From IMG/VR virus record IMGVR_UViG_3300009151_000077, positions 1 through 61,461 of that record: a stretch of DNA of 61,461 bases; one strand, given 5' to 3'. The position numbers and the translations under genes were made by a program. This document shows, one piece after another, positions 24,988 to 57,068 of this stretch (position 1 is the stretch's first letter; every line of letters starts with the position of its first letter). The notes under the pieces were generated by a model that worked only from the letters and a program-made list of their open reading frames with translations, did no database searches and had not been told where the DNA came from. This DNA is from a virus. Taxonomy: Duplodnaviria; Caudoviricetes.

Positions 24988-27900
24988 ATGTCAGATAATA
25001 ATATACCTTCACCAGCAGAATTTTATGGTAAAAAAAAACCATCAAGTACTAATAATATACCATCTCCAGAAGAATTTTACGGTACTTCATTAAAAAAAAA
25101 AGGGGTATCACAATCACAATTAGAGGAAGCGTCTACTTCATCGGATATATCAGACAACCAGGGAGATCAGCCTTCGGAGTCTTTAGGAGATGGTGATATA
25201 TATACATATAATGGTAGCACATATAAGAAGAGAGGCAACAAGTGGTATAAACTATCTGGTGGAAAATATGTACCTCTTACAGATGGTAATGTAGCTCAGA
25301 GAGTAGAGATATTAAACTCTAAGGCCAAAAAGTCAGTAGATAGATGGGCCAATGTTACTGAAGAGAATACAAACGCTAAGCCAAAATATAGAAAGGATGA
25401 CTATATAGATGAGGTTCAGAACACAGATTTCAATAGAACTGGTGATTCAAGAGCAATTCATGAAGAGGCATTACAAATGCAAAGAGAAGATATAGCTCAG
25501 AAAGAAGAAGAAAAATCTAGAAATAATAATCTTCTTCAAAATGAAGGTGTTTATACTGGATATCCTGGTAAAGATGGTAAGATTTATAAAATAATAGATA
25601 ATCATTGGTTTGAAGTAGATGCTCCTGATCCAAAATTTGAAACATTAACTCAGCCAGGAGGAGAAAATATATATAGAAAAATTGAACCAAAATCAGATAT
25701 TGATTTATATAATAAAGACCAGAAATGGAAACCTATAGATGATCAAAATAGATTAAAGTCACTTAATAAATATTTCAAAAAAGAAGCATCCTTAGACTCT
25801 ATGGATCAGGTATTTACTAATTATGACGATAGTGAAGAAAAAAAAGACAATTTATATAAAATAGATGATGGTGAGTGGAAGAGATTAATTCCAGGAGCTT
25901 CAGAGTATAGTACTGTTCTAGATGAAAATGCAATAAATGCATTAAATAGTAGGTACAATAAAAATATTGAATATAAAGATAAATCATCTGATAAAAAACA
26001 AGACTTAAAATTAAAATTTGTAGATATTAATTCTTCACTTACTGGTAAAACAGAAGAAGAAGCAGTAAGGATTTTAGAAGATAAATATGGAGATTATGGT
26101 TTCCAATTTTCACAAGAAGGGTTATTCAATATTGATAGAGTAAGAGTTAAAGCAGCAAATGGTAAGGAAATAACTGTAGAATTTGATGAAAAGAATTCAG
26201 AAGAGGCATTAAAGCTTAGAAATTTTATTGAACAAAATGCATCTAATAAAAGCAAATACAATTTATTAAATGTAATAGATAAAAAAGTTTCCGCCATAGG
26301 TGAGTCATATAATGATAAATATAATATATCTAGAGCAATACCTACTGATAATTCAAAGACGAGAGAAGAAAAGGAAAAGTATTACAATTCAGAAGAATAC
26401 AAAAAAATATTCAAGTCTTTATCTATAGATGAAATGGATGAAGAGGTTAGAAGAAGAGAAAGAGAATATCCTGTAACTAAAGGAAATATTTATAATATAT
26501 ATAAGCAAGAAAAAGAAAAGAAGTATAACTTAAATGATAAAAAAATAAAATCATTATACGAACAACTTAATATAGCTGAAAATTCTGGAAACAAACAACT
26601 TAAAAAAGAAGTTAAAAGTAAAATAGATACATACTTATCTGATGAAGTAATTAAAAATCAGGTTATGGATTATAATATTCATTTAAATGATTTAGTTGAT
26701 TCTGGAAAAAAATTAAAAACAGATATAAAACAATATGAATTATTGGTATCTGACTTTAATAAATCATATGCATCAATGTCCACAGAAGAGGTTGAAAAGC
26801 AGAAAAAAATATTAGAAAATAAAGCAGAGCAACTTGAAATAAGAAGAGATAATATATCTACTTCATTTAAAAACATAGAAGGATCACAGAAAAAAATAAA
26901 TATATTAGCTGGTGAGTACATCAGTTCAAAGGCAAAGATGGGTTCTTTTGGAGGTGCAATTGTAAATTCATTTTTAACTGGTGCTGTCAAAATAATTGAA
27001 CCAATGGTTTCTGCGTCATCATCTGGATATGATGTTGCGTTTGGAGTTAAAGAATCTATATCTCCAGAAGAAGAAAAATACTATAAAGATAAAGGATATA
27101 GTTATGAAGATATTCAAAATATAAAAAGAAACGAAAGATATAAAAGCGAAAAAGATAAGAGAAGAGAAGCTGTCATAGGAACAATAGGAAGCGAAACAAC
27201 AAAAGAATACATTAGTTCAAAAGATAATGGTTTTTTTGAGAAAGCATTATATGGTGTTGCTGAGTCAGCACCTGCAATGTTAGCCTCCTTAACTGGATCA
27301 TCAGCCGCAAGCTTTGGTGCTTTAGCATCACAATCATATAGCTCTATAGAAGATGAAATGCTTGGTGATGAAGATTTTAAAACTACTACTGCATTAGATA
27401 GATCTTCAATAGCAATACCATATGCATTGCTTATGGGTGTACTTGAAAATTATGGATTGAAAAACGCACTTAAAGGATCATCATTAACAAGTGGAATACT
27501 TAAAGGGGTTATATCTAGATCATTAAAGAAAATGCCATCTGGTGCTGAAAAAGAAGTTCTTCAACAAATAATAGATAAAGAAGTTAAAAATGTAATAGCA
27601 AAGGGAGCTATAAAAATAGTTAATGGTGCACTTGCTGAATTTGAAACTGGTGCTACTCAATCATTAGTATTAGATATTGGTTTAAAAGAAATATACAATC
27701 AATATAAAGATAAAACTAAAAACTTAACGGGAGGTGAGTCTTTTGATACACCAGATTCATTTGCTGAAGGAGCATCAAGGGTATGGGAAGATGGTTTAAT
27801 GGAAGCTATAGGTGGTGTTACTATATCTACATTTTCTAATGTTTCAACTGGAATTGTTACAGGAAATATTTCATTATACGATGAGAAAGATTTAAAATTC

Positions 27901-30900
27901 CTTGATGAAATATCTACCGATACTGAATTTAAAAAAATAATTGTAGCTAATTTAAAATCAGATATATTAAAAGGCAAAATAACTAAATCTGAAGCTGAAG
28001 CAAAACTTCAGAAAATGAACGAATTTTCAGGTATAATTCAAAACATGCCTGATGGACTTACCTCTGAACAACAAATAGAGTCTATTAATTTAATAGCTGA
28101 GAAAAAAAGATTAGAAAAAGAAATAGAAGGAAAAGATCCTTCTCTAGTAGATGCTCAAAAAAATAGAGTATCTGAGATAAATGAACAACTTAAAACAATA
28201 AGTAACAATGCCACTAAAAAAACCACAGAACAACAGCAAGGTAGCCAAGCAGAAGGCGGTGTCAGCCAATATCAAGGAGCTGGTGAAGGACAACAAAAAG
28301 ACGGGAATGCAGAAGGGGGACAACGGGAAGCCAAGGTCAATGAAGCAGATAGTGGCAATAGCACTATCCCAAGCAAAGTACAAGAAGAAGTAGCAACATA
28401 TAGAGCTGAAGAACAAGCTGAGCTTCTTAAAGCTATACCTAAAATAGAAAGCTATAAAGTTGATGGAAAGTTAGATAAAACTCTAATGCCTAAAACTGTA
28501 TTAGCTAAATATAATAAGATATACAATAAGTATGATAAATTAATAAGCCCTCTATTAGAAGCTACAACTGAAATAAAAATTGATAAGCAAAGTATTTCTA
28601 CTAATACTACAGAAGAAGTAGATAGAGTGAAATCACTTTCTATTGAGTCAGAGGATGGAGCTACATTTAATCTTGATGGTAAGAAGTATGACGGTCCTGG
28701 ATTAGTTGTTCCTGTAATTAGTATGAATACAACAATAGAAGATATAACTCCAGAGATGATATCTAAATTTGTTGAAGAACATGCTGATAAGATTGGAGAT
28801 TTTGGTACAGTAAAAGTTGGTATATATAAGTTTCCTAATAGTAATCAAGTATCTATAGACCTTAACATACTTGCACCTGAATCATCTAGAGATCAAGCAA
28901 TTGAGTTTGGAAAAATGTCTGGTCAAGAGTCTCTATTTGACATGAGTACATTTGAGAATGTTAAGACTGGTGCAACAGGAGAGAATCCAATGCAGTTTAC
29001 ACCACAGCAGTTTAAAGAAATTGCTAAGGCGTTGAAGGAAGGCAGGATGCCAAATGTATTTGGTACTCAAGAGGATACTAAAAATAATAGTAAGGAATCT
29101 ACAGCTAAGTCTGAAACTAATAAAGCAGACTATAAGCAAAACTTAGTTACTGCTGAAAATTCAAGAGAGGTAGCATCAAGACAAAAAACACCAATAAGAC
29201 AAAGGATAGCTAAAACAGTATCATTAGTAATGAGAGCTTTGCCTGGTGTTAAGATATATCTTCATAACAATGAAGCAGAGATGCATCAAGCCTTGGCAGA
29301 TTCTAGTGGTAAATCTTTAGAAGAAGTATCTAAACAGATAGGTAATTCAGCTGGGTCTCATATTTCAGGAGAGATTCATATAAATATGAATACCGCAAGG
29401 GAAAATACATTAATGCATGAGGCATTCCATGAGGCAATACTAAGGTCTGGAAAATCGGTTAAGACTATTATTAATTTTGCTAATGGACTTAAAAATATTG
29501 TATTAGATAAAGATGTTAAGGCTAAGTTAGATGATTTTGTTTCTATGTATAATTTAGATTCTAACAAAATTGAAGATCTTGAATACATTGATGAACAAAT
29601 AATATTAGAAAATAAAAGAAGAATAGCTGACGGAAAATTAGCTATGAATGCAAAAGAATCAGCTGATTATATTGACTATATAACTGAATCAACAAAATCT
29701 GAGGAAATGCTAGCAGAACTTGGTTCTATTATGGCTGAAGCGGAGACCGAACTAACAACTACAAAGCTGCATCAGTTCTTAAACCTAATTAATAGAATAG
29801 CTAAGAGCTTACGCTTACCTGTAATATTGAAGTCTACAGCAACTACACAAGAGGCCGTTGACTTTATTAATACTATGGCTACAAGTCTTAGGACTGGTGA
29901 GGAGATTGTAGGAGATAATGAAGGTGACGGTAAAATTAGAAGGCAAGCCACAGAAATCATGAAGGGAAATGAATCCCTAGAGAAGTTTGGTTTAAAAAAA
30001 GGAAAAAATATAACTAGAAAAATTGGCGAAGCCCTTGAAGCTAGACAACGTTCTAAATACGGTACAATTGCTCAAAAAGATAACTCTGCTGAAGCTCGTA
30101 AAAAAATATCTAACTGGATGGTTGATGAAGTAAAATACTTTGTCGAAATTATGGGTGATAAAAGTGGTAAAGGTTGGTATGGTGAGTTGTATCAAAAGTC
30201 ATTAGATAGAATGTCTAAGATTTTCCCTGAAATGAAAACAGATCAAAATGCAAGAGATTTGTTTACAATGTTGGTGGCAATTACATCTGATGGGCAAAAA
30301 GTAATGAGTAATTTTAAATTAGCAGCTTCTGCTTATGATTACTATAAGAAAAATGGAGTAATGCCTACCACTCTTCCAGGTCAAAGAGTAGCTTCTTTTG
30401 AAGCAAATCTAAAAAGAATAAATGAATTACTTATTGATTATAATGGTGATGTAGCCGCTATCAAAGAAAATTTGATGGAAGTTAAATCTATTCAAGAGAT
30501 AAATAAAGAGAGAAAGAAAGAAGGTTTAGAAGCGTTATCAACCAATTGGCCAGTTACGTTTAAGGCTCCATTCGCAGCATCTGTTTTTGGACCTAAACTA
30601 GGCATGTTCTTTTCTAATTTATCTGGAAACGAATCATATCCAACTTTAGATCGTTGGTGGTCTAGAACATTTAATAGATATAGAGGTACATTGATACCTG
30701 AATTAAAAAGTGGATTTACTAAAAAAGGTGAAGCTATTGGTCTTGATAGATTTAAGATATTGCTTGAAAGTCCATCTATGAGTAATGAAGAAGCACTATT
30801 AGCGTCTAAGTCTTACCGTGATTCATATGCCGCTAAAGGATACAAGAATGGAACTGAAGTAGAGAAAGCAGCAAATACAATATACAAAAATGCTTTTGAA

Positions 30901-33900
30901 AATCTTAATGATGCTCCATTCACTAAAAATGATCGTCAATTTATGTATGACACTATATCTGACGCTGTTAATAAATTAAATAAGCAGGAATATGATCTAA
31001 GTATTGCAGATGTTCAGGCTATTCTTTGGTATTTCGAAAAAAACTTATACAAAACATTAGGAGTTCAAGCAAAAATTGAAGGAATCAGTTATGAAGATGC
31101 CGCAAATTATACATATGATAAGTGGAAAGAGGCTGGTAATAAGTTTAACTACGAGATTAATCAATCTGAAGAAGGTCAATCTGTAGAGGATGAGGATATA
31201 GATGATACTGAACAACCATCCAAAATAAAACAGCAGAAGACCTTACAAGAAGAATTACCATTATATAAATTTGGAAATGAAATAACTACAACTATAGATC
31301 AAGATAAACCTATATCTGTTTTACCATTACCAGAAAGATATATGGATGGATATGAAGAAGCTACTGGTAAAAAATTAACTCAAAAAGATAAACAAAGTTT
31401 CCTATATAAATTAGGAAGAGATCATAAATATAAAAAAGGAGGCGTATATATTGATATATCAAATCTAGAAAATAAAGACACGGTAAATGGATATGTAGCT
31501 TCATCTGGAGAAATAAATATTGATCCAAAAACAGGAAGAGCTAGCCTTAATATATCTGAAAATATTTCAAGTCCTGAAGAAAGTTCTATTGGAAAGATTA
31601 TTAAAACAAATTTATTCAAGAAGAAAGCTGGATGGAATTGGACTTCAGATTCTGATAAATCAAGATATGATAAAGTAGAAACTTTAGTGTCTGTTGAAAT
31701 TGGAAGCAAACACGTTTATACCCTTGGTTTTAAATCAACTACACCAATACAGTTAAAAAATTATTCAGAATCTAAAAGCGAGCCTAGGTTAAGACCTACT
31801 ACAAAAGGACAATTATTTTTAGGTAATTATGTTGGAAATATTACAATAAGAGGTAAAAAACATCCTGTATATGATAATGTATACTCATACGATCAGAATG
31901 ATTATCAAACTTTAGATAGATTAAATTATAAATATTTAAAGCCTGAAGGACTACAAAGTTTTTATCCAGAACAAAGAAATGCAACATATAAAGAGCTAAA
32001 ATACAATCCATCAATAACACTAAAAGATAGATTAACAGATGCTGATCAATACATATTTGACAAACTAGGAATTAAGAATGCTGAATATGTATCTGGTGGA
32101 GTAGAAGCTTCTATTTATGATATAGGTGCTGGAAAAGTTATAAGAATATCTAAAAACCCTAGTAATTTTTCAAATAATCTTGTAAATAAAAAAATAGAAG
32201 GAGTTATTCCAGTTTATGCAACAGGTAAGGTTATTCTTCCTAAGAGAATGTTTGGTCTAGAAGATTACACGGGGCAAGTTATAAAAACAGAATCCAGAGA
32301 AGGTGGCTTAAAAGAAACCGAACCATTATATTATTCAATACTTAAAAAAGGAGATTCGTTAAATGTTAAAGAAGATTTAAATGCAATTTTAAATAAGCTT
32401 ATTAACTATATAACAAAAACACTTGATAAAAATATACGTTTTACTGATTCTATAGAAGATCAATTAACTATATTAAATGAACAAGAATTAGATGAATTTA
32501 AAAATAATCTTGACGATAAACAATTAAAAGATTTAAATAGAATAATAGAAATAAAAAACAATCTTAAAAAAATAGGAGTAAAAGAAAGAGACTCGCATAC
32601 TGGAAATTATGTTAGAAATTCAAATGGAGATCTTGAGGCAGTTGACCTTCAGTATGTTCGTTTTGATGAAGGATCTGAATTTAAAAAGACAGAAGAGAAA
32701 AATGTAATAAAACTACAAAAGACTCCACAAGAAACAAGAATGGATAATGAGTCTGAGTCTGTATTCAAGAAGTCATTAGATCGTGGAACAACTTGGGCTA
32801 AAGCTACTCAGAATGCACTAGACTACATACAGAAGTCAAAGTGGTATCAAGATGCAAACGACATAGATAGAGAGCAAAAGGTAAGGGACTTTAAGCAGTC
32901 TAAAAATCAAAAACTAAAGAAGGCACCATCTGTAGCTAAGATAATGGGAACTCCTAAGCCTAACATGGTCACTGTGAACGAGGTAGTTGCATTTAAGGAC
33001 CAACTAAGAAAAGAAGCCAAGGCAGCTAGAGAGGCCAAGGCTGACCTTAACTCAAAAAGAAAGTCATTAGGTGACGCCATCAAGGGAATGGTTAAGCTTG
33101 GAAAATTGAAGGCTACTCAAGCAGTCACAATCATCAAAAGAGTTAGTCAAGTAAACCTTGACAACCCAGTTATGGTTGAAAGACTTATTGACTATGCGTC
33201 AAGAGTATTTGAAAGAGCAGACTACCAAGAGAGATTAGACAGAGCATTCTCTTACAGAAGAGCGATCAGACGATTGTTGAAGTCAGATAACCAAGCACAG
33301 GTTATTGGTATGGCTAATCAGTTTACAAAGATAGATCCATCTATGGTTGAAAATATAGATGAGTATATCGCTATGGCTGATATAGTTAAGAATGCAGTGG
33401 CTCCTTCAAGAGCAAAAAAGTTCACTCTTGATAAGGAGAATTACTTTGATACTGATTCTGCAAAAGGTTTTGATATGGTATTAAGACAAGCTGCAAACAT
33501 AGAGACTGTATCAAACTTTGTTAAAGATGTACTTGAAAAACAAGAACAAAAATTAAAGGATGAGCTATTAGCTACTAATAATGATCTATTAGAATCTGGA
33601 GTTATATCTGCTGATATGACAGCAAAAGAGATACAAGAAATTGTAAACGCAATGAAAGATCCAGAATATAAAATGGATAGCCTAGAAAAAGAAAAGTACA
33701 TGAAGGCTTATCTATCAAAAAGATTTGAATCATTGGCATCAATTATTACAAATATTGTATACAATCCTAGAAACGAAAATCCACTTACTGGTGAGAAGAT
33801 GGCAATAGATGAAAAAGATAGAGCTATAATATTGAATTTACTAAAGGTAGATCTATCAGAGATGTCAAATAAAGATTCTATATTTATTGTTGAGGCAATG

Positions 33901-36576
33901 GATAACTTTATAACCAATGGAATAACTAGTAAATTAGAGGGTGCATTATCAACATACGAAGGAGAGCTTGGTTTAAAGAAAGAAATAAAATCTGGTAAAG
34001 TAGCTAGAGCATTGAAGCTTTACTTTAGCCCTAAAATAGGAAGATACTCTTCTGTAGAATTTACTCCACTACCACTTATGATAGAGAGGATGTTTAGTGG
34101 AGTTACAAGCGGAATAAGTGTAATGAAATCTATGGGACTTAATATTATTATTAATGGTGTTAATAAAGCAAATAATATTCATAACAAAATAATAAATGAA
34201 TACTACGATAAATTCATAAAGAATAGTAAAACATTTCATAATCCTGAAAATGTATACGAAAGAGGTATGCTTTCATTCTTAAAAAGAAATGTTACTGGAT
34301 CATTAGCAGAAATGAAGGCCGAAACAAATAGAAGGATTAATTTAATAACACAAAGTATTGATGTTTTAAGTAACTATGGAGATGAGTCTCAAAAAGCTAT
34401 GGCTGAAATTTATCAAAAATTATTTGATAAGTTAGGCGTAAGCACTGGAGACATAGACATAATTAACGCAAGAGCATCAAAAGAAAATAGAGAAGCTGTA
34501 GATTGGTGGATTAATGAGTGGTCTAAGCAATATAAAGATCTTGCTGATATAAGTTTATCTGTATATAATTATGACCTTGGAAGTGATTTAAACTATACTC
34601 CAGATCAATTCAAAACACTTAAGACAGAATCAATTGATAAAAACTTATTAGAGCGTAATTCATCGTTCTTAATAAGCATGGATAAAGTAACAGATAAGAA
34701 TAAGACAGGTGTTTTAATAGAATCAACTAGACCTACTAACATGGAGAAAGGTAGATATGTAAGTCTTGACTTTGATTCAAACAACTCAAACTCATTGAAG
34801 GGTGCATTAGTTGATATCAATACAGCCGCTGGAATAAGACAAGTTGATGGATTCTTAAATTCAGATCTATTAAATAAATTAATACCTACGGCTAAAGATA
34901 GAGATGCACTTAAAATAAGAGTAAACAGATACATAAGAAGAGCTAAAGGTAAAATAACCGTTCCTACAGATTTATATAAAGATGTTGATACTGTGCTTAA
35001 TTTTGCCGCGAGCCTTGGAGTTGGTAAGGCACTAGGTGGTGTACTACAGTCAGTAAAACAAACAATACCTATTGCACTAAGTACAGCTATAAACACTGGT
35101 AAGTTTAATGTAGCTGGAGTTGAATTCAATCAATGGCTTAATAAGACTGGAATGCCAATATCAAATAGAGGCATCGAGTCATTATCTACTATAGATTCTA
35201 TAGACAGAAGAATGGAAGCTAAAGGAACTAAGATTAAAGATTCATTAAAATGGATTGCAGAAAAACAACAGCTATATATAAAGTTTTTCTTGTCAAGACC
35301 AGATGTATTTATTGCAAGATCAGGTTTCGAGTCTTATTACTTACAGTATATGGGAGAGAAGTCTATAGACTGGGCCAATCATGAACCAAATCAAGACGCA
35401 TTAAACTATGCTCAATCTATGGTTGATAGACAGCAAAATATATCTGACCCAATGCTTGGCGGAGAGTTCTTAACATCTGAGGAATCAGTTAAAAGAATAG
35501 CTAAAAAAGTGTTATTCCCATTTGCTTCTTTTGCTTTAAATCAAAAGGCTAGATTAAATTCAGACTTAATAAATTTAGCATCTAAAACAACTAGCGAACA
35601 AGATAAAAAAATAGCAGCTAAATCAGCTATAGCTACGGTTGCTGAAATGGTTGCATACAGAGCTATGTCTGCTGCTATTGGTTATTCATTCTACAAGGCT
35701 GCTGAAATGGTAATCAATGGGTTTATAGGTGATGATGATGATGAAGATAAAGATCAAGATAAAAAATGGTGGATAAGTGCATCTAAGTTTCCAATTAAGT
35801 CAATGATAACTGACCTTGTATCTCCAGTACAGATGGCAGATCAATACGTTACTATGGGAACTGATTTCCTTTTATCTCTTGTTACTGGAGATACTAAGGC
35901 TGAGTTAGATGAGTCTGTTAAACAAGAAAATGAAATAAGAGCACTTAAGGATCAAGATCGAATGACTCCAAATCAAGAGGAAGACTTTAGACAAAAAGTA
36001 AAAGATAAGAGTACCTTTCAAGTTGGAAGTCAGTACGATCTTGTTAATGGATTTGGTATGGTTTCAATTGCATCAGACTTATACAAAAAGATATACTATG
36101 ACTATACTTTAGCTATGACTGGAGAGTTTGAGGATGAGTATAAAGGAAATATAACTACTAAGAAAATAAGACCAGTTGAGCAAGACTTAATGAAAAATAC
36201 TCTTATGTTCTCTGCATTATATGCCGCAGGTATTCTTCCAAAAGAATCAGATCAGATCGTTACAAAGGTTGTTAACATGGTTAAGAAGAACGCCATGTCA
36301 GAATCTGAGTATGAAAAATATAGTGAGTTCAAAACAGAATTTAAGCGTGAGCCAAGTCCATTTGAGATGGGAATGATTAAATCTGAAAAGAAGTACCAAT
36401 ATATATCTGACGATGTAAACTGGGTAAATACTAAGGGTGGATTAACATTAAGTCAAGGTAGAGAGTACGTTAAAATAATCAATACACTTGGTGAGGTTGA
36501 TAACAGTACTCTACTTGAGATAAAGGCTGGTAAGACAGCTGATCAAATAGTTAAGTCCATGAGGGCAAAGTTATAA
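24988..36576 (+). CDS. Giant polyvalent internal virion/ejection protein (3862 aa)
   Basis: Uninterrupted ORF with HExxH, GWY...DRW...QA.LW and kinase-like segments and a long helical C-terminus. Confidence 0.75.
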   Translation: MSDNNIPSPAEFYGKKKPSSTNNIPSPEEFYGTSLKKKGVSQSQLEEASTSSDISDNQGDQPSESLGDGDIYTYNGSTYKKRGNKWYKLSGGKYVPLTDGNVAQRVEILNSKAKKSVDRWANVTEENTNAKPKYRKDDYIDEVQNTDFNRTGDSRAIHEEALQMQREDIAQKEEEKSRNNNLLQNEGVYTGYPGKDGKIYKIIDNHWFEVDAPDPKFETLTQPGGENIYRKIEPKSDIDLYNKDQKWKPIDDQNRLKSLNKYFKKEASLDSMDQVFTNYDDSEEKKDNLYKIDDGEWKRLIPGASEYSTVLDENAINALNSRYNKNIEYKDKSSDKKQDLKLKFVDINSSLTGKTEEEAVRILEDKYGDYGFQFSQEGLFNIDRVRVKAANGKEITVEFDEKNSEEALKLRNFIEQNASNKSKYNLLNVIDKKVSAIGESYNDKYNISRAIPTDNSKTREEKEKYYNSEEYKKIFKSLSIDEMDEEVRRREREYPVTKGNIYNIYKQEKEKKYNLNDKKIKSLYEQLNIAENSGNKQLKKEVKSKIDTYLSDEVIKNQVMDYNIHLNDLVDSGKKLKTDIKQYELLVSDFNKSYASMSTEEVEKQKKILENKAEQLEIRRDNISTSFKNIEGSQKKINILAGEYISSKAKMGSFGGAIVNSFLTGAVKIIEPMVSASSSGYDVAFGVKESISPEEEKYYKDKGYSYEDIQNIKRNERYKSEKDKRREAVIGTIGSETTKEYISSKDNGFFEKALYGVAESAPAMLASLTGSSAASFGALASQSYSSIEDEMLGDEDFKTTTALDRSSIAIPYALLMGVLENYGLKNALKGSSLTSGILKGVISRSLKKMPSGAEKEVLQQIIDKEVKNVIAKGAIKIVNGALAEFETGATQSLVLDIGLKEIYNQYKDKTKNLTGGESFDTPDSFAEGASRVWEDGLMEAIGGVTISTFSNVSTGIVTGNISLYDEKDLKFLDEISTDTEFKKIIVANLKSDILKGKITKSEAEAKLQKMNEFSGIIQNMPDGLTSEQQIESINLIAEKKRLEKEIEGKDPSLVDAQKNRVSEINEQLKTISNNATKKTTEQQQGSQAEGGVSQYQGAGEGQQKDGNAEGGQREAKVNEADSGNSTIPSKVQEEVATYRAEEQAELLKAIPKIESYKVDGKLDKTLMPKTVLAKYNKIYNKYDKLISPLLEATTEIKIDKQSISTNTTEEVDRVKSLSIESEDGATFNLDGKKYDGPGLVVPVISMNTTIEDITPEMISKFVEEHADKIGDFGTVKVGIYKFPNSNQVSIDLNILAPESSRDQAIEFGKMSGQESLFDMSTFENVKTGATGENPMQFTPQQFKEIAKALKEGRMPNVFGTQEDTKNNSKESTAKSETNKADYKQNLVTAENSREVASRQKTPIRQRIAKTVSLVMRALPGVKIYLHNNEAEMHQALADSSGKSLEEVSKQIGNSAGSHISGEIHINMNTARENTLMHEAFHEAILRSGKSVKTIINFANGLKNIVLDKDVKAKLDDFVSMYNLDSNKIEDLEYIDEQIILENKRRIADGKLAMNAKESADYIDYITESTKSEEMLAELGSIMAEAETELTTTKLHQFLNLINRIAKSLRLPVILKSTATTQEAVDFINTMATSLRTGEEIVGDNEGDGKIRRQATEIMKGNESLEKFGLKKGKNITRKIGEALEARQRSKYGTIAQKDNSAEARKKISNWMVDEVKYFVEIMGDKSGKGWYGELYQKSLDRMSKIFPEMKTDQNARDLFTMLVAITSDGQKVMSNFKLAASAYDYYKKNGVMPTTLPGQRVASFEANLKRINELLIDYNGDVAAIKENLMEVKSIQEINKERKKEGLEALSTNWPVTFKAPFAASVFGPKLGMFFSNLSGNESYPTLDRWWSRTFNRYRGTLIPELKSGFTKKGEAIGLDRFKILLESPSMSNEEALLASKSYRDSYAAKGYKNGTEVEKAANTIYKNAFENLNDAPFTKNDRQFMYDTISDAVNKLNKQEYDLSIADVQAILWYFEKNLYKTLGVQAKIEGISYEDAANYTYDKWKEAGNKFNYEINQSEEGQSVEDEDIDDTEQPSKIKQQKTLQEELPLYKFGNEITTTIDQDKPISVLPLPERYMDGYEEATGKKLTQKDKQSFLYKLGRDHKYKKGGVYIDISNLENKDTVNGYVASSGEINIDPKTGRASLNISENISSPEESSIGKIIKTNLFKKKAGWNWTSDSDKSRYDKVETLVSVEIGSKHVYTLGFKSTTPIQLKNYSESKSEPRLRPTTKGQLFLGNYVGNITIRGKKHPVYDNVYSYDQNDYQTLDRLNYKYLKPEGLQSFYPEQRNATYKELKYNPSITLKDRLTDADQYIFDKLGIKNAEYVSGGVEASIYDIGAGKVIRISKNPSNFSNNLVNKKIEGVIPVYATGKVILPKRMFGLEDYTGQVIKTESREGGLKETEPLYYSILKKGDSLNVKEDLNAILNKLINYITKTLDKNIRFTDSIEDQLTILNEQELDEFKNNLDDKQLKDLNRIIEIKNNLKKIGVKERDSHTGNYVRNSNGDLEAVDLQYVRFDEGSEFKKTEEKNVIKLQKTPQETRMDNESESVFKKSLDRGTTWAKATQNALDYIQKSKWYQDANDIDREQKVRDFKQSKNQKLKKAPSVAKIMGTPKPNMVTVNEVVAFKDQLRKEAKAAREAKADLNSKRKSLGDAIKGMVKLGKLKATQAVTIIKRVSQVNLDNPVMVERLIDYASRVFERADYQERLDRAFSYRRAIRRLLKSDNQAQVIGMANQFTKIDPSMVENIDEYIAMADIVKNAVAPSRAKKFTLDKENYFDTDSAKGFDMVLRQAANIETVSNFVKDVLEKQEQKLKDELLATNNDLLESGVISADMTAKEIQEIVNAMKDPEYKMDSLEKEKYMKAYLSKRFESLASIITNIVYNPRNENPLTGEKMAIDEKDRAIILNLLKVDLSEMSNKDSIFIVEAMDNFITNGITSKLEGALSTYEGELGLKKEIKSGKVARALKLYFSPKIGRYSSVEFTPLPLMIERMFSGVTSGISVMKSMGLNIIINGVNKANNIHNKIINEYYDKFIKNSKTFHNPENVYERGMLSFLKRNVTGSLAEMKAETNRRINLITQSIDVLSNYGDESQKAMAEIYQKLFDKLGVSTGDIDIINARASKENREAVDWWINEWSKQYKDLADISLSVYNYDLGSDLNYTPDQFKTLKTESIDKNLLERNSSFLISMDKVTDKNKTGVLIESTRPTNMEKGRYVSLDFDSNNSNSLKGALVDINTAAGIRQVDGFLNSDLLNKLIPTAKDRDALKIRVNRYIRRAKGKITVPTDLYKDVDTVLNFAASLGVGKALGGVLQSVKQTIPIALSTAINTGKFNVAGVEFNQWLNKTGMPISNRGIESLSTIDSIDRRMEAKGTKIKDSLKWIAEKQQLYIKFFLSRPDVFIARSGFESYYLQYMGEKSIDWANHEPNQDALNYAQSMVDRQQNISDPMLGGEFLTSEESVKRIAKKVLFPFASFALNQKARLNSDLINLASKTTSEQDKKIAAKSAIATVAEMVAYRAMSAAIGYSFYKAAEMVINGFIGDDDDEDKDQDKKWWISASKFPIKSMITDLVSPVQMADQYVTMGTDFLLSLVTGDTKAELDESVKQENEIRALKDQDRMTPNQEEDFRQKVKDKSTFQVGSQYDLVNGFGMVSIASDLYKKIYYDYTLAMTGEFEDEYKGNITTKKIRPVEQDLMKNTLMFSALYAAGILPKESDQIVTKVVNMVKKNAMSESEYEKYSEFKTEFKREPSPFEMGMIKSEKKYQYISDDVNWVNTKGGLTLSQGREYVKIINTLGEVDNSTLLEIKAGKTADQIVKSMRAKL
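28208..28393 (+). CDS. Small basic phage protein overprinted in the +1 frame of the giant ORF (DUF6496-like)
   Basis: MPLKK...VSANIKEL...KQIVAIALSQA matches a recurrent small phage protein pattern; A-rich region before the ATG. Confidence 0.55.
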   Translation: MPLKKPQNNSKVAKQKAVSANIKELVKDNKKTGMQKGDNGKPRSMKQIVAIALSQAKYKKK

Positions 36577-49080: not shown

Positions 49081-49344
49081 TCATAGCTCTAGTTCTATAT
49101 GGTTAATAACTTGGTATTCGTAGTCAACGTCGTTGTTGTATGGATATGCCTGTATGATATACTGCAACCATTCACGTTCGTTCGTGAATTCATACTTCGG
49201 CATGTAGTCTAAGTGCACGTCAAATTTTCCCTCAGAAAATTCAATTGTTTGCCACTCGTCTAGTTCTTCGAATTGTATGCAGTGTGTTTCGACTCCGTGA
49301 GTCAGCTCTACATATCGGATGATAGGATTGATTTTTGCTTTCAT
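49081..49344 (-). CDS. Small early hypothetical protein
   Basis: ORF in chain. Confidence 0.55.
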   Translation of the reverse strand: MKAKINPIIRYVELTHGVETHCIQFEELDEWQTIEFSEGKFDVHLDYMPKYEFTNEREWLQYIIQAYPYNNDVDYEYQVINHIELEL

Positions 49345-49692
49345 AGTGTTGGTTTTTGTTAAGTTGTGTTAAAAAATGTTGGTTAATGTTGGTTTAATGT
49401 TGATTTGAAATTTTGTAAGCCTTGGTACGACTAGGTTAGTGTTAGAATGTTAATTTTTACCCTTTAGTAGAGAAAAAAAAATAAAATATATATATATATA
49501 GTATATAGTATTACTATATACTGTAATTATTTTAATTTCACGCTAGTTTTAGCTTTAAAATCAACATTTCAACACAAAGTCAATGATAGTAAGGGTTTCG
49601 TGAAAAAAAATCAACACTAAATCAACACGAGTTAACACTAGTATTTGTTAAACGATTGATTGATAGGTTGTTAGCTGATTTGATTTCAACAC
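49345..49692. repeat. Mirrored iteron-like array around an AT-rich palindrome; putative replication origin
   Basis: About 8 TGTT(A/G) units on the left, about 6 (T/C)AACA units on the right, central (TA)n and AGTATATAGTA-T-TACTATATACT. Confidence 0.55.
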
Positions 49693-49698
49693 TCACAA

Positions 49699-50055
49699 TC
49701 ACAGGTTGATTGTCGAGCCGTCGTTCAGATTAAAGATTGCTTTTTGGTTGTTCTGTAGTCCAACGAAGACAGCCTTGCTCTCATTGTCATATACCCTTGA
49801 GATATCTAGATAGAGCCATCCATCGTCGACCCATCCACCAAGGAAGTTCTCGTCGACTGATAGCTCTAGACCTTTCTCTGCGATGAATTGATTGATTGTC
49901 TGTTCGATCGATTGGCGGGTCTCGTCTATTGGTGTATGAGAGCCTCCCTTTAGGCTGACCACATAGCCAGATGTTGGGGCTGTTCCTAAGGCTAAGTTAA
50001 ATGTAGCTCCACCATTCTGAATGATGGAGTCTACGAAGTCGTGTAGGTTGTTCAT
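49699..50055 (-). CDS. Early protein of the GATF...GY.V...LGGW...YLDIS...NQKAIF family (possible SAM-lyase-like fold)
   Basis: Motif pattern; similar to a segment of the giant protein. Confidence 0.55.
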   Translation of the reverse strand: MNNLHDFVDSIIQNGGATFNLALGTAPTSGYVVSLKGGSHTPIDETRQSIEQTINQFIAEKGLELSVDENFLGGWVDDGWLYLDISRVYDNESKAVFVGLQNNQKAIFNLNDGSTINL

Positions 50056-50066
50056 GTTTATAGGTT

Positions 50067-50297
50067 TTAAAGGTTAATATTTTCATCATTTAGTTCAAGA
50101 GATTTCTCGTAGTCAGAAAGAAATTTCTCGTAATCAGAAAGTAATTTTATTAGATTTGTCGTTTGCAATTCATTGAATGTATTACTTAATGTCTTAATAA
50201 ATCTATCAGCGTTATTTTTTCTTACTGCTCTTTCAAATGCTTCAAGCACCTCTCCGTTGTCAAATTGAAATAGATTTTTTCTTTCTTGGTTGTTCAT
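50067..50297 (-). CDS. Small early hypothetical protein
   Basis: Preceded by the repeated leader. Confidence 0.65.
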   Translation of the reverse strand: MNNQERKNLFQFDNGEVLEAFERAVRKNNADRFIKTLSNTFNELQTTNLIKLLSDYEKFLSDYEKSLELNDENINL

Positions 50298-50324
50298 AAG
50301 TTCTAGGTTTTAAAGATTAGTTAA

Positions 50325-50474
50325 TTATTTTAATTCTTCAGCGTTCCAAATTCTTCGATGTTCATTGGTTTGAAATAACATACCAATGTAATCGGTCGTC
50401 TTGTCGAATGGAATATCTCCACCGCAAAAATTATTATTCCTTACCAGAATTTCGTGGGCTTGTTCTTGTGTCAT
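50325..50474 (-). CDS. Small early hypothetical protein (49 aa)
   Basis: Read manually (MTQEQAHEIL...); preceded by the repeated leader. Confidence 0.6.
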   Translation of the reverse strand: MTQEQAHEILVRNNNFCGGDIPFDKTTDYIGMLFQTNEHRRIWNAEELK

Positions 50475-50485
50475 AAGTTCTAGGT

Positions 50486-50710
50486 TTAAAAGGTTAGTGT
50501 ATCAATCTCATCGTAAAGTTCTACATACTCTAGTGGGAATCTTTCCTTTAGTGATTGTATTAATTTTGCATGGCTGTATACCTCATAGCCATCTCGCTCT
50601 GCGTTAACGATTGGTTGGATGACCTCTGCGATTTGGCTATCGTCTAGTGTTGTTACTAGGTAGAAGTCCTCTTCTGACCATGCTGTTGTGCTGATTCTAA
50701 TTACTCTCAT
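50486..50710 (-). CDS. Small early hypothetical protein
   Basis: Preceded by the repeated leader. Confidence 0.65.
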   Translation of the reverse strand: MRVIRISTTAWSEEDFYLVTTLDDSQIAEVIQPIVNAERDGYEVYSHAKLIQSLKERFPLEYVELYDEIDTLTF

Positions 50711-50722
50711 GTTTTCTAGGTT

Positions 50723-50929
50723 TTATTGGTTAATATATCTCTCGTTAAATTGTTCTTGAGTCACCTCAGTATTGTCGATGCCCAAGTTGTATGCTATCTC
50801 TGCAACGTATTCTTTGTTATCGGGATTCAATATGCTATCGGGCCAATATCCTGTGCATGTTTCGGTTTCTTTTACTATAGCACATCCGCTTAATATTATT
50901 GTTGCTATTAAAATTAATATCGCTTTCAT
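50723..50929 (-). CDS. Small early lipoprotein
   Basis: MKAILILIATIILSG|C lipobox; preceded by the repeated leader. Confidence 0.65.
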   Translation of the reverse strand: MKAILILIATIILSGCAIVKETETCTGYWPDSILNPDNKEYVAEIAYNLGIDNTEVTQEQFNERYINQ

Positions 50930-50941
50930 AGGTTCTAGGTT

Positions 50942-51199
50942 TTAAAGTTCGTACTCGTTTCCATCCTCATCATAATACATATCGTCATCAATCTCTTCCC
51001 ACTCTGTGTAGTAATATTCTTCTTGCTCATATGCTTCGTTAAGTATGAATTCATCAGATAGACCTTCCATACCACCACGGCTTCTAAGCCAATCAATTAA
51101 GTGTTGCTCCTCAGAGAAGTATAATTCTCCATCTCCAACAACAAATCCTTCGTTCATACCACGTCCCGTAGCATCACATTTTCTTGCATATCTTTCCAT
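50942..51199 (-). CDS. Small, highly acidic early protein
   Basis: Asp/Glu/Tyr-rich C-terminus; preceded by the repeated leader. Confidence 0.7.
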   Translation of the reverse strand: MERYARKCDATGRGMNEGFVVGDGELYFSEEQHLIDWLRSRGGMEGLSDEFILNEAYEQEEYYYTEWEEIDDDMYYDEDGNEYEL

Positions 51200-51434
51200 A
51201 AGTTCTAAGTTTTAGTTGGTTTAAAAAAAAGATTTTGTTGACACTTCCTCGTGAGTGTATTCCGATACAAAATCTAATAAAAATCTTAAGCAATCGATAG
51301 GTGGTTTCGAATGTGTACTTCTTCCTTTGCTAGCCAACACATTCTAGATACTCTTGGGTTTGTTGCATTAGTATCCATAGCAATAAATAATGATGGTACC
51401 ATGCCCCATCACTCGGCATTTTTTACTTGGTTAG

Positions 51435-51959
51435 TTACATTTTAAGCATTGTGGTCTCTGTCCCATCGTCTCCATGTTCTGGAAATTCTCTATTAAATTT
51501 ATCTTGATGTGTTTCCCAAAATCTAATGTCAGACAACCAAGATATTGAGAACTTTTCTAGTCCTGCTTCAATGCACATGTCGTAAACTTTCTCCGTATCT
51601 CTAGCTGTAGGGAAGTTCTTATCGAAGGAATACATGTCATTTAATACTTCGTTACGTCCTGTGTCATCTCCTACTACATAACCTCCACCACTTGTAGTTA
51701 CTAGTTCAACGGCATGTCGATTAGTTCTTGCCCATGCATATCTTTTATTAGACATGTCTTCTTTTGCCTTAGCTGTTGAGCCTTGTATAAAGCAAGCCTT
51801 AAAGGTTTTTAGTAACTCTACCTCTGTCATGGTAAAGTCTACGAGGATTGTCTCGTGCTCTAGCACACACTCTAACGTTACTCTGTTACCTACTATCTCG
51901 TGTACCTTGTGGTCACGACCTTGCATTTTTCTGTGGTTTACATTTACGATTGCTCTCAT
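51435..51959 (-). CDS. Early hypothetical protein (174 aa)
   Basis: Preceded by the repeated leader. Confidence 0.7.
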   Translation of the reverse strand: MRAIVNVNHRKMQGRDHKVHEIVGNRVTLECVLEHETILVDFTMTEVELLKTFKACFIQGSTAKAKEDMSNKRYAWARTNRHAVELVTTSGGGYVVGDDTGRNEVLNDMYSFDKNFPTARDTEKVYDMCIEAGLEKFSISWLSDIRFWETHQDKFNREFPEHGDDGTETTMLKM

Positions 51960-51983
51960 TGTTTCTAAGTTTTAATTGGTTAA

Positions 51984-52157
51984 TTAATCTTGACAAGCAT
52001 ACAACACTTGAATCAAGCTATCGTATAAGAACATCCCGTTGTATGTCTCAAAGCCAAATCGATTGATAGTGATGTCGCTGTCATTTAATTGTAGTGTGGT
52101 GTAAGTTCCCGTGCGTTGACCATAGCTGTCTTCAACGCATACATAGTAAGTTTTCAT
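51984..52157 (-). CDS. Small early protein (57 aa) downstream of hammerhead C
   Basis: Read manually (MKTYYVCVEDSYGQ...YACQD). Confidence 0.65.
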   Translation of the reverse strand: MKTYYVCVEDSYGQRTGTYTTLQLNDSDITINRFGFETYNGMFLYDSLIQVLYACQD

Positions 52158-52173
52158 GGTTTCTAATTTATTT

Positions 52174-52225
52174 GGTTAAGACGGCACGAATGCCGTTTCG
52201 ATTATTTAAATCTCATCAGTTAACC
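52174..52225 (-). ncRNA. Type I hammerhead ribozyme (HH-C)
   Basis: GGUUAA CUGAUGA GAUU-UAAAU-AAUC GAAA CGGCA-UUCG-UGCCG UC|UUAACC; complete core, three stems, cleavage between 52180 and 52179. Confidence 0.92.
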
Positions 52226-52228
52226 TTG

Positions 52229-52402
52229 TTACCATCCTCCATATGGCTCTACCTCTAAGTCGTTAAAATTCATTATTGAATCAGATAGTGACCACTCGTA
52301 CCATGCGACAAGCACATCGTTACCTAATACCTCAACTACTTCTCCTACTCCGTGACCATAGTTGAATTCTCCTACTATGTCTCCTACTTTTAATACGTTC
52401 AT
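52229..52402 (-). CDS. Small early protein (57 aa), SH3/KOW-like
   Basis: Read manually (MNVLKVGDIV...GVGEVVEV...VLVAW); stop is 3 nt before HH-C. Confidence 0.65.
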   Translation of the reverse strand: MNVLKVGDIVGEFNYGHGVGEVVEVLGNDVLVAWYEWSLSDSIMNFNDLEVEPYGGW

Positions 52403-52414
52403 AATTTCTAAGTT

Positions 52415-52597
52415 TTATTGGTTAATAAAATCTTGTGGGCTCATCTTGATCAAGTCCTCTTCTCTGAAGTTCTTAAGGTCTTGTAACTTGCTTCTATCTA
52501 CATCTATTATCCCGTGTACAGGGTGTTTGATGTCGTTGATGCCTACGAAGTTGATGTTACGAATCAACTGCTCTCTGATTTCAAGTTCTCTTGTCAT
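52415..52597 (-). CDS. Small early hypothetical protein (60 aa)
   Basis: Preceded by the leader; its last codons (INQ*) are the next leader. Confidence 0.65.
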   Translation of the reverse strand: MTRELEIREQLIRNINFVGINDIKHPVHGIIDVDRSKLQDLKNFREEDLIKMSPQDFINQ

Positions 52598-52624
52598 AAT
52601 TTCTAAGTTTTATATGGTTAATGA

Positions 52625-52732
52625 TTATCTCCAACCTCTTACACGTAATCGGTTAGTTCTTACTAATGTGCCCTCAAAGAAGAAGCCCCAAATCTCGAAT
52701 GCTCCCTCGATTCTAATGATTTTGCTAGTCAT
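52625..52732 (-). CDS. Small early peptide (35 aa) downstream of hammerhead B
   Basis: Read manually (MTSKIIRIEGAFEIWGFFFEGTLVRTNRLRVRGWR). Confidence 0.6.
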   Translation of the reverse strand: MTSKIIRIEGAFEIWGFFFEGTLVRTNRLRVRGWR

Positions 52733-52750
52733 AATTTCTAGGTTTTTATT

Positions 52751-52807
52751 GGTTAAGACAGCACCTTGCGAGTGCTGTTTCGTCTCATAAAGACTCATCA
52801 GTTAACC
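52751..52807 (-). ncRNA. Type I hammerhead ribozyme (HH-B)
   Basis: GGUUAA CUGAUGA GUCU-UUAUG-AGAC GAAA CAGCAC-UCGCAAG-GUGCUG UC|UUAACC; cleavage between 52757 and 52756. Confidence 0.92.
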
Positions 52808-52811
52808 TGTG

Positions 52812-52916
52812 TTAAAATGAACATGAAGTTCCGTGCACGATAGCATTGTAAACGACTACTGCTACTACTAACATTAAGCCTAAAGCAAATGTTAAGGGGG
52901 CTGTTAAGTTTTTCAT
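52812..52916 (-). CDS. 34-aa single-TM peptide flanked by hammerheads A and B
   Basis: Read manually (MKNLTAPLTFALGLMLVVAVVVYNAIVHGTSCSF). Confidence 0.6.
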   Translation of the reverse strand: MKNLTAPLTFALGLMLVVAVVVYNAIVHGTSCSF

Positions 52917-52933
52917 TGTGTTAGGTATTTGTT

Positions 52934-52983
52934 GGTTAAGACGCCTCACGGCGTTTCGGTCATTAAGACCTCATCAGTTAACC
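52934..52983 (-). ncRNA. Type I hammerhead ribozyme (HH-A)
   Basis: GGUUAA CUGAUGA GGUC-UUAAU-GACC GAAA CGCC-GUGA-GGCG UC|UUAACC; cleavage between 52940 and 52939. Confidence 0.92.
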
Positions 52984-53200
52984 TTGTTGCAAGCCACGTG
53001 AAACTGCTTGCCCTCTATTAATCCCTACTAGTGTTGTTATTCTAGTGGTTCCGACACACAACCACCCGAGTAGTGTATTGTGTGCCCTAGGTATGTCCTA
53101 GTCTTGTGCTATCTTATTGACCTCCTCACCGATTGCAGTCTCAAATAGTATCGTATGTCAAATTGTCATGGTGACCTCTCGTCAGCTGAGCCGTTGCCCT
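52984..53200 (-). ncRNA. Putative structured non-coding leader of the early transcript
   Basis: No ORF; at least four hairpins (52989-53011, 53027-53046, 53053-53086, 53087-53101). Confidence 0.4.
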
Positions 53201-53717: not shown

Positions 53718-53745
53718 TATCTTTGTAAAATAAATAGTATATTTG
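53718..53745 (+). promoter_or_regulatory. Tandem -7 elements TATCTTTG and TATATTTG
   Basis: Two TAnnTTTG copies at the start of the + strand gene block. Confidence 0.6.
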
Positions 53746-55508: not shown

Positions 55509-57068
55509 ATGATAGTAAAACAAGTGCATTTTGGCGATGAGGGCCAAAAAAAGTTGAAAAACGGAATCAAAATTATCGCTGGGGCGGTAAAGAGCACCTT
55601 AGGTGCAAGAGGTCGGACTGTATTAATAGAGTCTGAGCACCATGTAGGTGGTTTAACAGTCACGAAGGACGGTGTAACGGTCGCAAAGTCGATCAACCTG
55701 TATGACCCAACTGAGAACCTGGCTGTAATGATGATGCGTCAGGCGGCAGACAAGACGGCAACTGTAGCTGGTGACGGTACAACAACATCAATCGTGTTAG
55801 CTGAGGCTATGATCGACTCTGCTGACAAGCACATGGGATTCAATGAGAACGTTATCGAGGTGATCCGTGAGATCAATGACATTACGGGAACAATTGTATC
55901 TAGACTTGAGAAGATGAGCAAGAAGGTGAGTGGCAAGAAGTTATTTGACGTGGCATCTATCAGTGCAAACAACGACAAGCAGATCGGTAAGATGATCTCT
56001 GATGCATTTAACGAGGTTGACATGGTAACTGTTGAGAACAGCATGAACTCGGAGACACATGTAGAGATTATTAGCGGAATGAAGATCGATCGTGGTTACA
56101 CATCGAAGTACTTCATCAACGAGCAGAAGAAGCAGGAGTGTATACTTGACAACCCATACATTTTAATTACAGATCACGAGATCAACAATTTATCCAACTT
56201 AGAGGCTATCTTAGCACCAATTGTAAGCCAAGGCAGGTCGTTATTGATCATCGGTACACTTGGACCAAACGCAATGAACACATTAAATGTGAACGTGGCA
56301 CAGGGCAAGATCAAGGCTTGTAACATTATCCCCCCATCGTTTGGATACAGGAAGAAGGACCTACTAGAAGATCTAGCTGTAGCACTTGGAGGTACGTACC
56401 TATCTGAGGACACTGGAGACGACTTAACGCTTGTTACTATGGCTGACTTAGGTAAGGCATCGAAAGTTGTTGTGAAGAAGAATATGACAGTATTTATGAA
56501 TGTCGCTGAGGTTAAGGAATCTATCGACATGAGGGTTGCTGACTTGAAGCATCAGATATGGGAGACAACTGACGCAAACGACAGAGAGTTCTTAAAGCAG
56601 AGAATTGCAAATATCTCTGGCGGTGTTGGTGTTATCTACGTTGGTGCGTTGAGCGACATTGAGCAGAAGGAGAAGAAGGACAGGATCGATGACGCTGTGT
56701 GTGCTGTTACTGCTGCGATGGACGAGGGTATATTACCTGGTGGTGGTATTGCATTACTTAACTGTATGGATTTGGTTATGGGTGACAGTGTTGCACAGAA
56801 CATTATGTTCGATATGTTGAGCTCACCATTTGATCAGATACTTTTAAACGCAGGCAAGGACCCATCGGCTATTAAGTTAGAGTTAGAGGGATTAGGCTTT
56901 GGTTATGACGTTAAGAACGAGGTATACGGAGACATGATGAAGATGGGTATCATTGACCCAACGAAGGTTACCAAGAACGCACTACTTAATGCTGTATCTG
57001 TGGCAACAACAATTATGAGTACAAACGCAATTATAACAAACATAAGAGACTATGAAGGTTCTAAATAA
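55509..57068 (+). CDS. groEL: Phage chaperonin GroEL
   Basis: VTKDGVTVAK, AGDGTTT, DRGY.S.YF, GILPGGG and GIIDPTKVT motifs; no GGM tail. Confidence 0.95.
   Translation: MIVKQVHFGDEGQKKLKNGIKIIAGAVKSTLGARGRTVLIESEHHVGGLTVTKDGVTVAKSINLYDPTENLAVMMMRQAADKTATVAGDGTTTSIVLAEAMIDSADKHMGFNENVIEVIREINDITGTIVSRLEKMSKKVSGKKLFDVASISANNDKQIGKMISDAFNEVDMVTVENSMNSETHVEIISGMKIDRGYTSKYFINEQKKQECILDNPYILITDHEINNLSNLEAILAPIVSQGRSLLIIGTLGPNAMNTLNVNVAQGKIKACNIIPPSFGYRKKDLLEDLAVALGGTYLSEDTGDDLTLVTMADLGKASKVVVKKNMTVFMNVAEVKESIDMRVADLKHQIWETTDANDREFLKQRIANISGGVGVIYVGALSDIEQKEKKDRIDDAVCAVTAAMDEGILPGGGIALLNCMDLVMGDSVAQNIMFDMLSSPFDQILLNAGKDPSAIKLELEGLGFGYDVKNEVYGDMMKMGIIDPTKVTKNALLNAVSVATTIMSTNAIITNIRDYEGSK

Follow-up and report, generated by a model that had tools for sequence, protein, structure and literature searches.

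The minus strand of a tailed phage (Duplodnaviria; Caudoviricetes), represented by IMG/VR virus record IMGVR_UViG_3300009151_000077, carries three short intergenic RNA elements that look like hammerhead ribozymes, which raises the question of whether they are ribozymes and what they do for the messages of the small genes around them. The window, by which we mean the whole stretch of DNA that was analysed, is the complete record of 61,461 bases, and its completeness is rated at 100%. Conserved core, fold, family-wide covariation and placement strongly support the three elements, here called A, B and C, as hammerheads of type I, and they are very probably active as ribozymes. We consider it likely that they are functional cis-acting elements, co-transcribed with the small genes of the minus strand, that trim the message into units with short leaders.

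Hammerhead A lies at 52934..52983, hammerhead B at 52751..52807 and hammerhead C at 52174..52225, all on the minus strand, which is the coding strand here. Cuts are predicted after C52940, C52757 and C52180 (52940/52939, 52757/52756 and 52180/52179, respectively). The three copies span 810 nucleotides (nt), bounding one gene and then three genes. Each reads GGUUAA (stem I), the CUGAUGA core, stem II, GAA, a stem III closed by an A-U pair, C17, and UUAACC. The conserved core is complete in all three (C3 U4 G5 A6 N7 G8 A9, G12 A13 A14, A15.1-U16.1, H17), the core-adjacent pairs G10.1-C11.1, A2.1-U1.1 and A15.1-U16.1 are intact with no mispair beside the core, and the topology is that of type I, with stems II and III loop-closed and both ends in stem I. 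Stem I, of 6 base pairs (bp), is identical among the three. Stems II are GGUC/GACC, GUCU/AGAC and GAUU/AAUC, and stems III likewise differ yet pair across the copies. In A, a 4-bp stem II has the loop UUAAU and a 5-bp stem III the loop GUGA; stem III is 8 bp long in B (loop CGCAA) and 6 bp in C (loop UUCG). A sequence-only reading of the window had described three intergenic coding-strand elements with an invariant core, and with stems II and III that vary in sequence but keep pairing; coordinates, strand and anatomy agree with ours. Two of its details are amended here. A 4-bp stem II with a 5-nt loop is correct in general, but B can also form 5 bp with a 3-nt loop, and of the stem III caps that it named, GUGA in A and UUCG in C stand, whereas B is capped by the 5-nt CGCAA rather than by a GCAA tetraloop.

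Folded by itself, each element adopts the canonical three-way junction at minimum energy (-16.1, -16.6 and -11.3 kcal/mol for A, B and C), with z-scores of -3.0, -2.6 and -1.8. A descriptor search that required the core, H17, a stem I of at least 5 bp, a stem II of at least 3 bp and a stem III of at least 4 bp returned A, B and C and nothing else on both strands of the window, and 0 matches in 200 dinucleotide shuffles. R1, a covariance model built from A, B and C, scores them at 75.3, 73.0 and 81.6 bits, and the next best match in the window reaches only 13 bits.

The same arrangement, which the sequence-only reading had suggested looking for in related phages, is found there. The pattern TTAACTGATGAG-N9-15-CGAAAC has at least 131 matching stretches in viral contigs. 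Eighty loci were fetched with flanks and 74 were searched, with L029, L041, L044, L046, L065 and L073 excluded for same-contig overlap; on these 74 viral loci R1 gave 118 matches, some of them outside the pattern selection. The core is conserved across 105 distinct copies. When these were aligned as distinct rows, in an alignment that was fitted to the model and in which the inner four stem I pairs were fixed by the search pattern, 98.5% of the cells were paired, 380 cells were compensatory and 13 of 16 pairs had changes on both sides, compared with only 23-43% of cells paired in controls with partners slid by 1-3 columns. Twenty-four distinct copies deviate from the pattern; they belong to the same phages as the pattern copies, and 19 of them retain an NNUUAA stem I. 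Arrays of at least two copies occur in 22 of 71 related contig stretches and arrays of at least three in 9 of 71; the largest was counted at eight copies, one of which is a truncated duplicate. All five related IMG/VR records that were searched whole carry copies (1-3 each), and of three GenBank relatives two carry one copy each and the closest carries none. The copies of two cultured Elemovirus genomes, one in each, score 42.7 bits. DNA searches of the phage record collection with the 4-kb region and with a 71-nt hammerhead query both gave no match. In prokaryotic genomes a stricter pattern gave 11 stretches, 10 of them with a full R1 match, and 5 of the 11 record titles name Bacteroidota. 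The complete chromosome (~3.2 Mb) of Paraflavitalea speifideaquila (L205) has two tandem hammerheads of this subfamily, presumably in a prophage. A further side observation concerns the cultured Elemovirus record NC_055852.1, in which a minus-strand hammerhead at 17290-17347 lies under the plus-strand 'hypothetical protein' gp68 (17275-17382, or 1776-1883 of locus L138); this annotation is probably a mis-call.

Conservation extends to the periphery. Among 112 family copies, N7 is U in 100 and C in 12, and H17 is C in 96 and A in 16. Immediately 5' of stem I stands an A in 93%, and immediately 3' of it only A and U occur. Loop II has the consensus U(96%)-N-A(87%)-N-U(82%), and a 4-bp stem II with a 5-nt loop is present in 76 of the 112. 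The conserved loop II and stem I flanks probably reflect a contact of loop II with the end of stem I; because they point to such a tertiary contact, these copies are probably not hammerheads of the slow, minimal kind. In A, B and C, neither an internal loop in stem I nor a pseudoknot of a known rate-enhancing type is evident.

Placement was measured on 114 distinct copies (111 from the loci plus A, B and C), in which the search pattern leaves the sequence 3' of the ribozyme unconstrained. From the predicted cut the first ATG is 22 nt away at the median (interquartile range 21-25), and in 107 of 114 copies this ATG opens an open reading frame (ORF) of at least 30 codons or one that runs off the locus; for random positions in the same loci, used as a control, the corresponding values are 879 of 2251 and a median distance of 32 nt. 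Upstream, 71 of the 114 copies have an open frame of 30 or more codons whose end lies no further than 80 nt away; in 43 of the 114 this end falls in the interval from 2 nt inside stem I to 6 nt ahead of it. The sequence 3' of stem I is A-rich and nearly G-free, with a Shine-Dalgarno-like word in only 13 of 108 leaders. In the window the predicted cuts lie 23 (A), 24 (B) and 22 nt (C) ahead of the next AUG, and B and C start 4 and 3 nt past a stop codon, so the spacings of 22-24 nt and of 3-4 nt (for two elements) given by the sequence-only reading are borne out.

On the minus strand, the predicted cuts would leave an A-rich 23-nt leader at A (52917..52939), with UUAACC at its start and no predicted structure, a 24-nt leader at B (52733..52756) and a 22-nt leader at C (52158..52179). 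The first ~40 nt of the predicted 3' products fold at 0, -0.9 and 0 kcal/mol for A, B and C. The stem I duplex amounts to just -4.1 kcal/mol, so the cleavage products should separate. These leaders precede three small minus-strand ORFs: a hydrophobic ORF of 34 amino acids (aa) 3' of A (52812..52916, ATG at 52916), a 35-aa ORF 3' of B (52625..52732, ATG at 52732) and a 57-aa ORF 3' of C (51984..52157, ATG at 52157). An ATG within the core of B makes ORF callers stretch the next gene to 52798; its real start is 52732.

The leader sequence itself is shared more widely than the ribozyme. A ~25-nt leader of the form TTAACC, 4-5 A/T, AAAACYTAGAA, 3 nt and ATG is common to ~13 consecutive genes from 52916 to 49084, and in several of them the previous stop codon overlaps it. 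Only three of these genes have a hammerhead ahead of the leader; small early-type genes at 49081..52621 (minus strand) have it ribozyme-free, for example at 52621, 52425, 51983 and 50733. It follows that the 3' strand of stem I belongs to a leader that also occurs where there is no ribozyme. In the window the leader of the gene at 50710 is ribozyme-free in this way, and the orthologue of that gene in the related locus L019 has a full hammerhead directly 5' of the same leader, with the previous gene's stop codon falling within stem I. We considered the shared leader as a promoter for a phage polymerase and regard this as less likely, since the motif is anchored to the ATG and its equivalents in other phages have Shine-Dalgarno-like words. 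The leaders 3' of ribozymes in those phages are phage-specific and some contain such words, which argues for a translation-initiation region rather than a promoter.

Only 11-27 nt separate the genes of this region, which lie closely packed on a single strand. No minus-strand terminator-like site was found between 50,500 and 53,900, and no U-tract follows the stems of A, B or C on the minus strand. A sigma-70 scan for a promoter of the minus-strand module did not rise above shuffles, and the small-gene module may use another promoter type. On the plus strand, Bacteroidota-type -7 boxes (TAnnTTTG) are seen closely 5' of genes at 53718, 53738, 55485, 57787, 136 and 2331. The proposal of the sequence-only reading that a polycistronic message is cut into short-leader units fits the packing, the lack of a terminator and the cut-to-AUG spacing; its statement that the ribozymes punctuate the operon goes too far, since they stand at 3 of the ~13 genes that share the leader.

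The phage and its host bear on this reading. The window is a complete podophage genome related to phages of Flavobacterium and Cellulophaga. It codes for virion proteins, a portal and a large terminase as well as for a GroEL-type chaperonin and a 3862-aa ORF, and its replication module on the minus strand includes exonucleases, a helicase and a primase-helicase. The large terminase matched 87 phage records, each over at least 80% of its length, and by phage host these include Flavobacterium (68), Cellulophaga (15), Tenacibaculum (2) and Maribacter (1). The top match is an uncultured podovirus at 68% identity, and Elemovirus isolates match at 44%. Because the terminase matches are to phages of Flavobacterium, Cellulophaga and Tenacibaculum, the host very probably belongs to the Flavobacteriia; the -7 boxes and the A/U-rich leaders that lack Shine-Dalgarno words fit such a host. 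A search with a neighbouring 512-aa protein found no relatives. The phage-encoded chaperonin is at 55509-57068 on the plus strand (Pfam Cpn60_TCP1, 1.9e-50; PHROG 5725). The 3862-aa ORF (24988-36576, plus strand) lies 3' of the structural genes. A role as a virion RNA polymerase, which would have backed the label of an early operon, gained no support: the ORF has no Pfam, PHROG (first 1671 aa searched) or PDB sequence match, and the DFDxD motif was not found.

What follows on co-transcription, on cleavage inside the cell and on mRNA stability and translation is inferred. A, B and C would be co-transcribed with the small genes that head the minus-strand (early/replication) module of a Flavobacteriia-type podophage, and each hammerhead would fold during transcription and cut constitutively after C17. 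Hammerhead cleavage leaves 5'-OH and 2',3'-cyclic phosphate ends. The upstream piece would thereby keep the compact folded ribozyme with the cyclic phosphate at its 3' end, the weak stem I would fall apart after the cut, and the downstream piece would begin with a 5'-OH on UUAACC, followed by ~16 A-rich unpaired nt and then the AUG. The likely benefit is that a cistron or short block would be uncoupled from the RNA upstream of it, which for A is a structured RNA of ~180 nt described below. The cleaved cistron would gain a short unfolded leader like those of the other early genes, suited to Shine-Dalgarno-independent initiation in Bacteroidota, and the resulting ends would be expected to be poor substrates for 5'-monophosphate-dependent decay.

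Several points weigh against this reading. Both the cleavage and the transcript are predictions. No promoter was found for the minus-strand module, with no -7 box on the minus strand between 45,869 and 54,127, so gene packing carries the case for co-transcription by itself. No explicit tertiary contact could be modelled for the hammerheads. Some ten neighbouring genes have the same leader and no ribozyme, and the orthologous gene in L019 has a ribozyme that its counterpart in the window does not, so that any single gene can do without the ribozyme. No copy is present in the closest relative by terminase (68% identity). Finally, the gathering score was not reached by any Rfam hammerhead family in the window or in 20 relative loci that hold 58 R1 matches.

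The Rfam hammerhead type I models, to which the sequence-only reading had looked for confirmation, gave no match at gathering score anywhere in the window. In E-value mode, RF00163 (Hammerhead_1) listed C only, at 22.7 bits against a cut-off of 34, with A and B not listed; RF03152 (RAGATH-1-hammerhead) gave 26.1 bits for C and 23.5 for B against a cut-off of 56.3; and RF00008 matched B in the wrong register. Both RF00163 and RF03152 share the type I topology and core with the window copies, and RF03152 is a phage-associated type I family with a long stem III, as in the window. Its model, however, combines a stem II of one pair with a conserved hairpin upstream, which the window copies lack, and the columns of this hairpin are poorly matched by them. 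A, B and C are not assignable to RF00163 at threshold, and their membership in the ribozyme class is unaffected.

The patchy distribution also bears on the strongest rival explanation, in which the hammerheads are active but selfish or neutral passengers, which recombination at the shared UUAACC leader would spread and which bring the phage no benefit. None are present in the closest terminase relative and one to three in others, the ribozyme comes and goes at an orthologous leader, the NNUUAA of stem I is kept in those 19 of 24 secondary copies that the pattern did not select, and each window copy is closer to copies in other phages (87-92% identity over ~55 nt) than to its neighbours in the window. 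Passengers would not be expected to hold so tight a position relative to stop and start codons over 114 copies or to conserve both core and peripheral positions, and the same genes keep a processing-type element upstream of them in distant phages. Perreault et al. (PMC3088659) note how frequent hammerheads are in selfish elements, but those are repeats rather than single intergenic slots. On balance we regard this explanation as unlikely.

A regulated or deliberately slow switch, whether a timer or a control of early genes that depends on Mg2+ or a protein, is improbable. The lack of an evident cleavage-speeding internal loop or pseudoknot in stem I would suit it, and regulated cleavage has been suggested for some phage variants in what is available of the same paper (PMC3088659), but the core is fully consensus, loop II and the A residues on either side of stem I are conserved, as a fixed tertiary contact would lead one to expect, and there is no ligand-type extra domain.

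Still less probable is that the released segments (183 nt from A to B and 577 nt from B to C) are re-ligated by the reverse hammerhead reaction or a host ligase of RtcB type, yielding circular or shuffled RNAs. Stem I is identical while stems II and III vary; every UUAACC 5' end can pair with every GGUUAA, and in the type I geometry the catalytic core stays with the piece that carries the cyclic phosphate. The idea appears in the sections available of Perreault et al. (PMC3088659) as well, where spliced or circular products were sought and none found. The identity of stem I is explained more simply by the leader shared with ribozyme-free genes, and no ligase gene was found among the part of the ORFs that was scanned. 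The reading of A, B and C as no ribozymes at all, being either chance matches or hairpins that act as terminators or ribonuclease (RNase) targets, accords with scores below the Rfam thresholds and is close to refuted by three descriptor matches observed against 0 in 200 shuffles, by an unpaired core conserved in 105 distinct copies while the stems covary, and by a minus strand without a U-tract after the stems.

For hammerhead A, the preferred reading of cis-acting processing gains a further aspect from its surroundings. Comparison with relatives revealed a conserved structured non-coding RNA of ~180 nt directly 5' of A (52989..53165, minus strand), and the cut at A would set its 3' end. In this RNA a 7-bp stem that covaries encloses an invariant loop of 16 nt, a terminal hairpin carries a conserved loop of 11 nt, and a conserved TTGACAT lies at the 5' edge. 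It is present in three of five related records, 400-690 nt upstream of their hammerhead, and an nhmmer profile recognised it in 36 of 54 loci that were pulled by the 16-nt loop motif; for a pattern this short chance hits are expected, and the remaining 18 look like such hits. RNAalifold on 30 sequences gave 24 pairs, 15 of them with compensatory changes. No Rfam family matched the window stretch at E<=10 or eight relatives at E<=1.

In relatives, the slot that A occupies in the window, between the ~180-nt RNA and the (U)UAACC leader, holds instead a 46-nt three-way-junction RNA with a 7-bp outer stem and two 4-bp hairpins with the loops AAUGA and AGCGAUA. Among 18 sequences, 99.6% of cells are paired and 7 of 15 pairs are compensatory, compared with 23-56% in slid controls. 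It lies, for example, at 1062-1118 of L147 (minus strand) and 679-736 of L019, and a model of it, R2, detects a single copy in each phage and no copy in the window. The slot after the ~180-nt RNA can also hold a minihelix with a canonical T-arm of the GGTTCGAnTCC type (~632-670 of L019; also L150, L173, L183 and L195), which sometimes precedes the junction RNA and in one case replaces it. A reading of the slot elements as transfer RNA (tRNA) or transfer-messenger RNA (tmRNA) was rejected: ARAGORN finds none, the Rfam tRNA models do not recognise the junction, and Rfam gave merely tmRNA fragments of 13-17 bits at one locus.

The genes behind these elements correspond. The 35/36-aa gene that lies 3' of B in the window follows a hammerhead in relatives or, in many, a junction RNA, and the 57-aa gene that lies 3' of C directly follows a hammerhead in L037 and L057 and a junction RNA in L146; that the same two genes stand behind either element is the basis on which the slots are equated. 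Tentatively, and with low confidence, we infer from this position that the hammerhead may be one of several interchangeable modules that form 5' ends, and that the junction RNA may be a new processing element that makes the same 5' end of the leader, either by self-cleavage or as a tRNA-like decoy for RNase P or Z.

In phage T7, RNase III cuts the polycistronic early mRNA between genes at structured RNA elements. The T7 enzyme is a host protein that leaves 5'-phosphate and 3'-OH ends, whereas the window has predicted self-cutting by RNA with 5'-OH and cyclic phosphate ends. Closer precedents exist among phage hammerheads. As far as the available portions of Perreault et al. (2011, PMC3088659) go, multiple hammerheads flank single genes or short gene blocks in prophages, it was proposed that long phage transcripts are processed into mRNAs of operon length or of single genes, and three tandem arrangements were found to cleave in vitro and one in vivo. 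Those clusters resemble the present one in having several consensus-core hammerheads on the coding strand among small phage genes and in the role proposed. Compared by description, the earlier examples are mostly of type II, or of mixed types with pseudoknots, and come from prophages of Proteobacteria and Firmicutes, whereas all copies here are of type I, with a fixed 6-bp stem I in a shared leader and ~22 nt to the AUG. The same source describes HHphage of haloviruses HF1 and HF2, which lies 13 nt ahead of the start codon of the first early gene and for which a 5' end was mapped no more than 3 nt from the cut. Like the present copies, it stands a few nt ahead of an early-gene start and heads a polycistronic transcript; it differs in having a variant core with insertions, in belonging to a halophilic archaeal virus and in being a single copy rather than an array. 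The RiboJ insulator (PMC6206723, available in part) likewise puts a ribozyme just 5' of a translation start and makes the leader independent of its upstream context, but it is an engineered ribozyme from a satellite RNA with an added hairpin, used in Escherichia coli with a leader that contains a Shine-Dalgarno sequence. A 2019 review (PMC6765202), in its available part, repeats the processing idea and calls the purpose of bacterial and phage hammerheads unresolved.

The high novelty that the sequence-only reading assigned to this locus is therefore not upheld, since the same role had earlier been proposed, and partly tested, for clustered phage hammerheads (PMC3088659). The arrangement has been known in phages since 2011, and the window is a good new example of modest novelty. 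In the limited literature collection that was searched, there was no paper on hammerheads in phages of Flavobacterium or Cellulophaga or in crAss-type phages, and none on a fixed spacing of hammerheads to phage start codons. What is new is the fixed cut-to-AUG spacing, the leader held in common with ribozyme-free genes, the gain or loss of ribozymes at orthologous leaders, and the uncatalogued RNA with a three-way junction that takes the slot of A in relatives, beside the conserved ~180-nt structured RNA.

For annotation, these results mean that pipelines that work at Rfam thresholds miss a whole, abundant subfamily of phage hammerheads. The slot comparison adds two uncatalogued conserved RNAs that lie by the ribozymes, one of them a candidate processing element. 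The fixed spacing of ~22 nt provides a concrete, testable hypothesis for the purpose of bacterial and phage hammerheads, and the cultured Flavobacterium phages with one copy make it accessible to experiment. If the hammerhead is indeed one of several interchangeable modules that form the 5' end of the same leader, a defined 5' end would matter for the Shine-Dalgarno-independent translation of early genes in phages of Bacteroidota.

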